NCBI GenBank assembly: GCA_964438425.1
Contig: CAYTKM010000001.1
Span: forward strand, 590,603 to 654,602
Direction of reading: 5' to 3'
Source of the DNA: an uncultured Gammaproteobacteria bacterium
GTDB lineage: Bacteria > Cyanobacteriota > Vampirovibrionia > LMEP-6097
Length of the DNA stretch: 64,000 nucleotides
The translations under genes and the position numbers were made by a program. The notes below the pieces were generated by a model. That model did no database searches. It was not told the origin of the DNA and worked only from the letters and a program-made list of their open reading frames with translations. Of the stretch, positions 37,309-39,690 are shown in pieces. How positions within the stretch are numbered: position 1 is the first letter of the stretch; each line of letters opens with the position of its first letter.

Positions 37309-39690
37309 TTAAGGTGTTGCTGCTGGAATCATGCTACTACCCCAGTTGTTTTCTGGAAAGAAGTGGCTCATAGCTTTAGGTGTAGGATCAAGGTTTAAAG
37401 TATCACCAGTCGCTCTTGCTATATCCTCGAACTGTTCGGTTAGACGTGGCATATAAATACTGGCATCTAAACCTAAAGCATCAAACGCAAAAACATGTGC
37501 GTCCCACCATTGTTGGGTGGTAAATAAATCTTCAGCGCCATGTGGAATTAAGATATTCATGAGTTGAGTTTTACTTTGATGGTCGTAAAGAGGTAGATCA
37601 GTTAGTTGGCGGCTTACTGTGCGGTTTTTAGGTACTAAGATCGCAAATAAATCATCTGGATCAGCTATGTTGCCATCAACCCGCGGTGAGCTTAAAAATC
37701 TTTTCTCCAGCATATGATCAGCTTCGAAAAGATAACCCCAGCCGCGCCGATCAGCTATTAGATCTCGGTATGGTTGGATAATACCACTGCCAGCAGCAGG
37801 GCTTTCAAGTAAAGTATGAATAAAGGCTCTAGCTTCATCAGTTACCTGAGGAACTAATTTGTTGCTTAAGCTAGACCTTAGACGTCTACTGAAGTTATCA
37901 CCAAGTAGATCTATCAGTATATCTCGGTATTGACCATTGGTTTGATTCATAGCCCAGCGCACTGCATTTGCACGTCCCCCACTGCTACGGTATTGTCTAA
38001 ATCTTTCAGCTAATTTAGGATGACTAAACCCTTCGAAATTAGCATCAAACACTTTAGCAAGCTCACGCCTCTCGAGCACTTGGGCTAAAGAAGCTGATAA
38101 ACGATCATCAAAAGCAGCAACCAAGTCACCAATGTCTAAATCTACGCTACTGAGTCTAGACCTGACTTCTGCTTGCAGAGTGTCAGAAATTTGCCAGTGA
38201 CTGGGATCTAAGGTGGTGTTAGGAGGCTCTAGACCTAGTAAAGCCTCATCCATAACCTGTCTAAGCTCAGTTGCTGAGCTGATGCCACTTAATTTTGTGG
38301 TCAGAAGATCTGGTGTTACTTCTGTATTAAGTCTTCTGACGATACTTTGAATTTCAGCTAAAATCTGACTAGTACTTAGTTCAATTGCATCAGCGTCTAA
38401 TGCTGAAAGTAGAGTTCTAATACGTCTTTGAATTTCAGGTTCAGCCTCAACTGCTGCTGCGATTACCTCATCATCAAGACTTTCAGTCACTAAAATCTTT
38501 AATTCATTAGTGCCAAGACTATCAGCTACATTATTAAGCCTTCTAAATCTTCTAAAGATAGCTTTAAGCGAATTTAAGACGCCAGCATCTACGCTAATTA
38601 AGGAAGCTAGGCAACCGACATACATTAGTGCAAGCTCAGTTTCACTTACAGGGTCACCAAAGAAATTTTCACCAGTAACTGAAGCGTAAATAGTCTGCAC
38701 GGCACCATAGATATCGCCTACGATAGGTACAATACCTATCATCATTTCAAAAACATTGAATTGCATGCGCACTCTAGCTGATAGTTGCCTGCGGAAATGA
38801 TAACGAGGACTGCTAGCATCTGGTATGCTCATTGCCAGATTTGATAAATCTGCGCCTTGCGCTGGCACTTGGTGTAAATGCCTGACGATATGTTCTTTGT
38901 AAATGACTCTAGCAGCGCCAGCACGATCATCCCAGGAAATATTTAATCTAACTGTAACTGCTCGAGTGCGGCAGACATGAATCTCATAAAATGCTGCCTG
39001 GCTTTGAGGTGGATGTACTAGTTGGTAAGCAAACCCGGCTGCAAAGCTTTCATGAGAACTAAGTTCAAGTGACCATCTTTCATCAATCTGGTTATCGTAA
39101 TTAAAAGTAGTTTTTAAAGGTAAAGTACGTATTTTGACATCATGCCGGCGATTGCTGGCAGAAAAAGTGTTTAAAGATGCAGGGTTTAAAAAGCTAAAAG
39201 TAGTATTTGAGCTCGCAGCGTTAAAATCACTACTCACTGGTATTTGTTCAAGATTATACTGGTCTATGAAGCTAACTTCAGGTTTAATAAGGCGGCTCAA
39301 GTTGATAGCCGAGCCTAGACTCGGAATTAAGCTAAAATCATGCACACGATAAACTTCAATAATAGGTAAGTTTTCACCTCGACTTTGTAGTATTTGCAGT
39401 AATCTATAGGGAATTTCAACTCGAGCATAGCGGCTAATGACGATTCTGATAATCGCAGTGTTAAGACTATTAATACCAGTTGCTGGAGTGAAATTCCAGG
39501 CAAAGTGCACATGTCTGCGCCAGCTCCGAGAGTATATTTTAATCTCGAATAGATTTAGCCTGAAGTTCTGGTGCGCGCGCGTGTAATACCGAAGACGCGC
39601 GCGCGGCTCATCGCGGCTCAAGTCCGCCAGTGGGCGGACTTGAGCCTTAAGCTTGGTAGTACTGCTGTCAAGTAGAAACTCGAATGTCAC
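37309..39690 (-). CDS. Putative polymorphic toxin: pre-toxin TG-like region plus C-terminal HNH/His-Me-type nuclease
   Basis: MIGIVPIVGDIYGAVQTIYASVTGENFFGDPVSETE (PT-TG pattern); C-terminal EADHMLEKRF...DPDDLFAILVP...YDHQSKT...IPHG, like H(H/D)xxEKRF toxin nucleases; GTG start abuts the upstream TAA. Confidence 0.65.
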   Translation of the reverse strand: MTFEFLLDSSTTKLKAQVRPLADLSRDEPRARLRYYTRAHQNFRLNLFEIKIYSRSWRRHVHFAWNFTPATGINSLNTAIIRIVISRYARVEIPYRLLQILQSRGENLPIIEVYRVHDFSLIPSLGSAINLSRLIKPEVSFIDQYNLEQIPVSSDFNAASSNTTFSFLNPASLNTFSASNRRHDVKIRTLPLKTTFNYDNQIDERWSLELSSHESFAAGFAYQLVHPPQSQAAFYEIHVCRTRAVTVRLNISWDDRAGAARVIYKEHIVRHLHQVPAQGADLSNLAMSIPDASSPRYHFRRQLSARVRMQFNVFEMMIGIVPIVGDIYGAVQTIYASVTGENFFGDPVSETELALMYVGCLASLISVDAGVLNSLKAIFRRFRRLNNVADSLGTNELKILVTESLDDEVIAAAVEAEPEIQRRIRTLLSALDADAIELSTSQILAEIQSIVRRLNTEVTPDLLTTKLSGISSATELRQVMDEALLGLEPPNTTLDPSHWQISDTLQAEVRSRLSSVDLDIGDLVAAFDDRLSASLAQVLERRELAKVFDANFEGFSHPKLAERFRQYRSSGGRANAVRWAMNQTNGQYRDILIDLLGDNFSRRLRSSLSNKLVPQVTDEARAFIHTLLESPAAGSGIIQPYRDLIADRRGWGYLFEADHMLEKRFLSSPRVDGNIADPDDLFAILVPKNRTVSRQLTDLPLYDHQSKTQLMNILIPHGAEDLFTTQQWWDAHVFAFDALGLDASIYMPRLTEQFEDIARATGDTLNLDPTPKAMSHFFPENNWGSSMIPAATP

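Follow-up and report, generated by a model that had tools for sequence, protein, structure and literature searches.

Pre-toxin TG (PT-TG) polymorphic toxins carry a helical hairpin with a TG loop upstream of an exchangeable C-terminal toxin-type domain (PMC3482391; PMC13483458), and PT-TG proteins without any trafficking or toxin domain constitute a large unexplained class (Becerra Soto et al. 2026, PMC13483458). The eCIS_core domain (DUF4157, the PVC-metallopeptidase; Geller et al. 2021, PMC8213781; Zhang et al. 2012) marks toxins that are loaded into extracellular contractile injection systems (eCIS), and a long linker and the lack of an immunity gene are frequent among these toxins (PMC8213781; PMC3482391). 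Toxins with an HNH or His-Me finger nuclease at the C-terminal tip include the colicin E7 and E9 DNases and the Tox-HNH, AHH, SHH, GHH and WHH domains of Zhang et al. 2012, and cyclic oligonucleotide-based anti-phage signalling systems (CBASS) combine one conserved component with modular effectors, such as the patatin CapV, an endonuclease or transmembrane effectors (PMC12480259). Here, we analysed a locus that resembles each of these systems in part. It lies in a stretch of 64,000 nucleotides (the window; positions 590,603 to 654,602 of contig CAYTKM010000001.1, assembly GCA_964438425.1) from an uncultured bacterium that GTDB places in the Vampirovibrionia (Cyanobacteriota), and it consists of a gene for a 793-aa protein (the effector) and, directly upstream, a gene for a 1007-aa protein (the partner). 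The two genes probably form a conflict cassette in which the 793-aa protein is the exchangeable effector (toxin) and the 1007-aa protein its counterpart. This cassette is widespread and apparently undescribed, and we found no mention of the partner family or of the C-terminal tip of the effector in the literature that was searched.

The comparison with the described systems reveals likenesses and differences in each case. Like PT-TG polymorphic toxins, the effector has a TG-loop helical hairpin ahead of an exchangeable C-terminal toxin-type domain; however, its hairpin stays under the Pfam threshold, a VgrG, LXG, WXG, FHA or Rhs trafficking part and an immunity gene are missing, an extra N-terminal beta domain is present, and the protein always pairs with an unannotated protein of ~1000 aa. 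Relatives of both effector halves occur behind eCIS_core, and a long linker before the toxin domain and a missing immunity gene are likewise shared with eCIS toxins, but eCIS_core itself (PF13699) is found in neither the effector nor the partner, and a separate giant partner stands where the injection marker would be. As in HNH/His-Me toxins, a DH pair ends a strand, and a second strand, a conserved Asn and, further on, a His come after it, in a domain located at the C-terminal toxin-tip position, yet this tip has no profile or fold match, a long insert lies between its strands, and its invariant residues E662, R664, Y702, K707, T708, E720 and Q726 are outside any described HNH toxin signature. 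Finally, as in CBASS (PMC12480259), one component stays constant while the effectors beside it alternate, a patatin phospholipase in this same genome among them, whereas the cassette has no cyclase, NTPase or other known sensor and no PADLOC match.

Results

A constant partner with varying neighbours

The effector gene (37309..39690, minus strand) is an open reading frame (ORF) of 793 codons plus the stop codon, present as a single copy in the genome, and the partner gene (P0008; 39691..42714, minus strand; ORF of 1007 aa) lies upstream of it. At the junction read from the sequence (39688..39693, minus strand), the TAA of the partner runs straight into the GTG of the effector (TAAGTG) and a GAAGG is located four nucleotides upstream of this GTG, so that the two genes form one translationally coupled operon. 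The GTG at 39690 is the start of the effector gene: its two closest homologues (38–40% identity, full length) align from residue 1, with MTFEFLL in the effector and MTFPLIL in a homologue. The public gene call (P0001, 733 aa) begins 60 codons late, at an internal GTG (residue 61), thereby leaving out 60 conserved N-terminal residues.

In every related locus with enough flank, a partner homologue of ~1000 aa is adjacent to the effector. It lies upstream of the effector in L002 and L006 as well as in L001, where it is split in two, and downstream in L005 (a Litorilinea metagenome-assembled genome, MAG) and in L008/L009. The pairing recurs in unrelated phyla. The partner query was limited to residues 410–1007; query words from the variable first 500 residues found almost nothing. 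Among the 8000 candidates scored, 1055 were partner homologues, all of them hypothetical proteins without Pfam domains, with sources that include Nitrosomonas, Bacillus cereus, Cohnella, Streptomyces, Amycolatopsis, Xanthomonadales and the archaeon Methanosaeta. The first ~400 aa of the partner are variable and residues 410–1007 are very conserved (e.g. FEQAFEW..YPYFWGR), and neither a Walker A or HExxH motif nor a signal peptide is present in its sequence. Partners of distant phyla also share an extreme N-terminal tip, M..ELFRxxxxRP (ELFxxxxxRP-type), ahead of the variable, helical region of ~400 aa, and this tip could be a recognition or docking tag.

A survey of effector diversity, covering about a dozen loci, showed that the partner is the constant element and that the adjacent gene varies. 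The same genome carries a second cassette (contig 2, 212923-217373, minus strand; L014 6924..11374), in which a partner paralogue of 1014 aa (35% identity over 597 aa, E 1e-107) is directly followed by a gene for a 467-aa patatin-like phospholipase (PF01734, E 5.9e-28) with a hydrophobic insert of ~70 aa; the ribosomal protein L11/L1 genes lie immediately upstream of this cassette. Proteins with PT-TG and a D..EAK motif stand beside the partner in Nitrosomonas europaea (Betaproteobacteria; L018, 10135-12009) and in Cohnella (Firmicutes; L020, 9141-11000). These two effectors (624 and 619 aa, respectively) are 66% identical over 620 aa across phyla, which points to recent transfer between the phyla. 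In L017 (1-17000), the partner, which is the closest homologue on a long contig (47% identity), is accompanied by a 387-aa HExxH protein (HEATH, a zincin-type motif) within a mobile element that carries a relaxase, a serine recombinase, and SymE-like and VapBC toxin–antitoxin genes. The neighbour in L019 is a 622-aa protein with a weak Het-C-like motif, and the neighbours in L021 and L022 are unannotated. L022 (1013-6674) belongs to a Methanosaeta MAG, where, in place of a single effector gene, three unannotated genes (341, 461 and 106 aa) lie close together after that of a 973-aa partner.

Anatomy and relatives of the effector

An earlier note on this DNA had drawn attention to two stretches in the span 37309-38780, and both indeed lie in the one minus-strand ORF of 793 aa: IGIVPIVGDIYGAVQTIYASVTGENFFGDPVSETE corresponds to effector residues 318–352 (38635-38739), EADHMLEKRF...YDHQSKTQLMNILIPHG to residues 656–718 (37537-37725), and the span itself to the C-terminal 490 residues. 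The layout proposed there, with a beta-rich N-terminus of ~300 aa, a long helical linker and a C-terminal tip, agrees with our AlphaFold2 model of the full-length effector, which was built on 63 relatives (mean pLDDT, the predicted local distance difference test, of 77.8).

All parts of the protein are encoded on the minus strand. The N-terminal beta-rich domain (residues 1–303, 38782..39690), assigned from DSSP strands, belongs to no known family; in the model, residues 12–303 are mostly strands, with a pLDDT of mostly 80–95 over residues 50–300. This domain is conserved in the family and is also found behind eCIS_core in other proteins. It is followed by a PT-TG-like helical hairpin (residues 305–375, 38566..38778; loop TGENFFGDPVS), delineated by hydropathy, conservation and a transitive link to PF14449, in which helices 305–339 and 350–361 of the model flank a TGxxF[FW]G loop and two segments, ~313–331 and ~353–371, are moderately hydrophobic. 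Next come a variable all-helical linker (residues 376–545, 38056..38565), part of a purely helical stretch in the model (369–545) and with a profile that matches the closest relatives only, and a conserved helical adaptor (residues 546–611, 37858..38055) with the pattern F..GF....L...Y..Y...WA..Q..G.....L...LG, which is common to sister proteins with a different tip. The C-terminal catalytic-type domain (residues 612–793, 37312..37857) is compact in the model, and its mobile core, which has been transferred between carriers, comprises about residues 625–750.

Conservation was assessed in 63 full-length relatives with 17–40% identity to the window protein. Fixed positions comprise P322, G325, T339, G340 and G345 in the hairpin, W579 and G597 in the adaptor, and D658 in the tip (63/63). 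H659, E662, R664, F665, P687, Y702, H704, K707, T708, P716, G718, E720 and Q726 of the tip are kept in at least 90% of the relatives, with H659 and H704 each present in 62 of the 63, and position 689 is N in 52 and D in 7. The motif DHMLEKRF (residues 658–665, 37696..37719) starts at the end of strand 655–659, and the stretch from N689 to H704..K707-T708 (37567..37626) includes N689 within VPKN, after strand 682–687 (FAILVP), and H704 at the opening of helix 704–714. The core signature of the tip is written as [EQ]xDHxxExRF ... VPKN ... YxHxxKT ... PxGxE, and on this alignment the quoted motifs are far beyond chance.

The family is rare and patchy, with 269 clusters found in a profile search of 1.84 billion representatives. 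According to a split-profile search, most members share the four-part layout, and both halves also travel apart. About a dozen sister proteins of ~740 aa keep the beta domain, the hairpin and the adaptor (equivalent to residues 546–610) and carry another tip, ending in LFsDN...aVfEVKsGy, a PD-(D/E)xK-like signature that is unrelated to the window tip (hhalign 0.7%). We also considered whether the window tip is a degenerate PD-(D/E)xK domain akin to this sister tip, and rejected it on the basis of the same hhalign value and because no restriction-endonuclease fold was found. In the relative P0143, the beta domain and hairpin come with PT-TG (22.1 bits) and Ntox1 (E 8e-9); in six proteins an N-terminal eCIS_core (DUF4157) lies ahead of the beta domain and hairpin; and P0086, a 1039-aa eCIS_core protein, ends in a window-type tip (core ~625–750). 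The tip core is present on other unrelated carriers as well. The idea that partner domains are fused into the long eCIS_core proteins was dismissed, as the partner profile matched 0 of the 158 family proteins.

These architectures show that the C-terminal domain is exchangeable, being PD-(D/E)xK-like in the sisters and with the window tip itself on other carriers, including eCIS_core proteins. As in polymorphic toxins, a conserved N-terminal part is combined with alternative C-terminal toxin domains. The effector would act like a PT-TG-class polymorphic-toxin effector, kin to eCIS-type toxins, and the kinship with eCIS_core proteins is the strongest argument for a toxin-type effector with an exchangeable tip. 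By formal membership, the effector falls outside PF14449, the trafficking-domain polymorphic toxins and the eCIS toxins, and it has no profile similarity that would place it with HNH. The statement in the earlier note that similar C-termini occur on Rhs-type toxins is right as regards an exchangeable tip in toxin-type architectures, but no Rhs element is present.

The assignment of the hairpin to PT-TG deserves separate mention. The gathering score of PF14449 is 23.5 bits, and the effector has no match to this family, neither as a whole protein nor, at E≤10, with residues 301–380 isolated; Pfam, NCBIfam and PHROGs gave nothing usable for the effector beyond a faint DUF4112 match, located at the first helix of the hairpin. 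Of the full-length relatives, 1 in 63 has a weak PT-TG match in Pfam, and a PF14449 search of the whole genome returned nothing, while the control genome did match. The PT-TG-type layout is nonetheless present, with two hydrophobic helices around a conserved TG motif (T339-G340), before a variable C-terminal domain. Moreover, a profile of the hairpin finds two partner-linked proteins, L018_624 (Nitrosomonas europaea) and L020_619 (Cohnella), at E ~4e-8, and these score 28.9 and 31.4 bits, respectively, against PF14449 and thus above the cut-off; the relatives P0143 (22.1 bits) and P0100 fall just under it. Because the hairpin profile finds proteins that pass PF14449, the hairpin is a divergent PT-TG relative, by transitive homology only. 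The 'PT-TG-like region' of the earlier note consequently stands as a layout and as a transitive relationship, and not as a match to PF14449 itself.

The C-terminal tip

For the tip, the same note had proposed a His-Me/HNH nuclease with an H(D/H)xxEKRF motif, a motif that resembles the colicin DNase pattern ELHHEKP...VVTPKRH. When modelled alone (residues 612–793, 111-sequence alignment), the tip gave a confident model (pLDDT 88.8; predicted template modelling score, pTM, 0.86) with the order beta-alpha-beta-alpha by DSSP: strand 655–659, a short helix, strand 682–687, and then helices. The predicted structure carries a D658-H659...N689...H704 pattern. Foldseek with this model returned no match at E<0.5 in PDB or BFVD, bearing in mind that a motif as small as the His-Me element can escape detection, and the full-length model had no match at E≤0.001 (best E 0.03). 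The effector, the isolated tip (E≤10) and the 63 relatives had no Pfam match to the HNH clan, and sequence and profile searches of PDB, with profiles built from 4, 5, 49 and 111 sequences, found nothing in the tip and only noise in the helical linkers. In hhalign, the tip reached a probability of 3.5% versus Cas9 HNH and of 0.2% versus the ColE7 DNase, using comparison sequences written out by hand rather than retrieved. The nuclease assignment of the earlier note is hence unsupported by Pfam, PDB profiles, Foldseek or hhalign.

A DH...N type of HNH is known from Cas9 and T4 endonuclease VII. The pattern in the tip is compatible with such a site without being evidence for one. In detail, the general base would be H659, which ends the first strand, and D658 and N689 would bind the metal, an arrangement that we consider rather unlikely. 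D658-H659 does end strand 655–659, a second strand (682–687) leads into N689 and a helix, H704 varies in only one relative, hhalign places the DH of the tip on the DH of Cas9 HNH, albeit without significance, and the sister proteins bear a nuclease-like PD-(D/E)xK domain at the tip position. Against this, all searches listed above came back empty and 22 residues, including a helix, separate the two strands. His-Me chemistry as such seems rather unlikely. Equally tentative is the broader proposal of a polymorphic Rhs-type toxin with a His-Me finger (HNH) tip and an N-terminal domain that docks onto the upstream protein, as Rhs repeats are not present, other effectors beside the same partner family do without the N-terminal beta domain, which therefore is not needed for partner linkage, and this domain also occurs behind eCIS_core in proteins without a partner match, which makes docking doubtful. 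Since the alternative tip in the sister proteins is nuclease-like, the window tip would most plausibly still be a phosphodiesterase or nuclease, most probably a metal-dependent one that uses D658 and H659, helped by N689, H704, R664 and K707.

Genomic setting and acquisition

The cassette is flanked by housekeeping genes, with mfd, an RNase J-like gene and an aminotransferase gene on one side and uvrC and sdhB on the other. Downstream of the effector, an ORF of 79 aa with one hydrophobic helix (37031..37270, minus strand) is a doubtful gene and was considered as a putative immunity candidate; it has a GC content of 0.26, no Shine-Dalgarno sequence is visible, and related loci have no small downstream gene at this position (placement was compared, not sequences). 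It was rejected for these reasons, namely the very low GC, the missing Shine-Dalgarno sequence and the lack of a similarly placed counterpart. The window also contains, shortly past the downstream end of the cassette and encoded on the other strand, tandem paralogues of 734 and 760 aa (31862-34066 and 34378-36660, plus strand), which are extremely acidic, consist of repeated modules of ~80 aa and have no Pfam match.

None of 60 related genomes contains the effector, and none of 400 further genomes in the phylum contains the partner. Because of this absence, and because the G+C content at third codon positions (GC3) equals that of housekeeping genes, the cassette was acquired horizontally, but not recently; recent acquisition, judged by composition, was rejected for the latter reason. 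As to secretion, Pfam and NCBIfam identified no trafficking domain in the effector that is tied to a secretion system. Genome-wide searches for eCIS_core (PF13699) and for tube proteins found nothing, but the controls failed likewise, so these searches are uninformative.

Discussion

If the 793-aa protein is, as we think probable, the exchangeable effector half of a conflict cassette, the partner would hold, arm or carry it, the hairpin would engage a membrane, as proposed for PT-TG modules, and the C-terminal domain would be a hydrolase that damages the target cell. Regarding its role, we put the chance of a toxin aimed at other cells at about even, and favour this role because of the kinship to PT-TG, Ntox1 and eCIS_core; a defence effector in abortive infection is a lesser possibility, and something else altogether is less likely still. 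Several observations weigh against a conflict cassette. Neither protein has a signal peptide or a recognised trafficking domain, no conserved immunity gene was found at the window locus or at related loci, and the 93%-complete genome contains neither a phage/eCIS sheath (PF04984) nor the sheath of a type VI secretion system (T6SS; PF05943). The effector misses PF14449, PDB profiles, Foldseek and hhalign revealed no known fold of a nuclease or other enzyme in its tip, and the partner matches nothing in Pfam, NCBIfam, PADLOC or PHROGs, nor in PDB when a 49-sequence profile is used. Lastly, the housekeeping-like GC3 of both genes gives no sign of recent acquisition.

An abortive-infection (anti-phage) system, in which the ~1000-aa partner senses infection and releases or activates the neighbouring effector inside the producing cell, is possible, if clearly the less favoured role. 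Such a system would need neither an immunity gene nor a secretion signal, and indeed an immunity gene and signal peptides were not found; its repertoire (patatin, PD-(D/E)xK-like nuclease, HExxH protein and hydrophobic hairpins) resembles CBASS-type systems, some loci are located among integrases, transposases, a relaxase and toxin–antitoxin genes, and the partner occurs in Gram-positive and Gram-negative bacteria and in one archaeon. It is this repertoire, together with the missing immunity gene and secretion signal and the spread across envelope types, that speaks for defence. However, a PADLOC 2.0 scan of both proteins and four homologues (six proteins, E≤1) gave no match, an NTPase motif is missing from the partner, both cassette copies in the genome sit among housekeeping genes, and PT-TG, Ntox1 and eCIS_core, which are hallmarks of exported toxins, are fused to close relatives of the effector (PMC3482391, PMC8213781).

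As a classical binary (AB) toxin, the cassette would consist of a secreted B component, the 1007-aa protein, which forms a pore or translocates and inserts an amphipathic beta-hairpin, and of the 793-aa protein as the enzymatic A cargo. The coupling and co-inheritance of the genes, a T/E/S-rich segment of the partner around a hairpin of alternating hydrophobic and polar residues, and the fact that no immunity gene was found would all suit this arrangement, which is nevertheless improbable, and less likely than attack or defence, because neither protein has an N-terminal signal peptide. In addition, no Pfam or PDB similarity to protective antigen (PA), aerolysin, Tc or other translocators was found, the family spans very different envelopes, including that of an archaeon, and the effector has a membrane hairpin of its own. 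That the two proteins are subunits of an enzyme or structural complex that serves the cell and has no part in conflict, with a patchiness that would be incidental, strikes us as very unlikely. Host-like codon usage, housekeeping neighbours and a degree of partner conservation that is unusual among conflict proteins speak for it; against it, enzymes of unrelated classes replace one another beside the partner, toxin markers are fused to relatives, the identity of the Nitrosomonas and Cohnella effectors shows horizontal transfer, and the partner is missing from the other genomes of the phylum that were searched.

Returning to the conflict cassette, we tentatively suggest that the partner defines a self-contained, envelope-independent effector system in bacteria and archaea, which loads, arms or delivers a neighbouring enzyme. 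In such a system, and with the same reservation, this enzyme would be a new fold on a PT-TG-type protein in the case of the window tip and a patatin phospholipase in the case of the second copy. The tip would represent a new toxin-type domain family, with a confident model, no structural relative in PDB or BFVD and a chemistry that is open to point-mutant tests. The locus would also provide a concrete explanation for some of the PT-TG proteins that lack further domains, namely that their constant companion is a separate giant protein, and two cassettes with different effectors in one small genome would be a natural system in which to study partner function. It is a realistic possibility that the cassette, taken in its entirety, represents a new kind of system and, if the partner works as suggested, cells without a contractile injection, T6SS or type VII secretion (T7SS) apparatus would still deploy polymorphic toxins.

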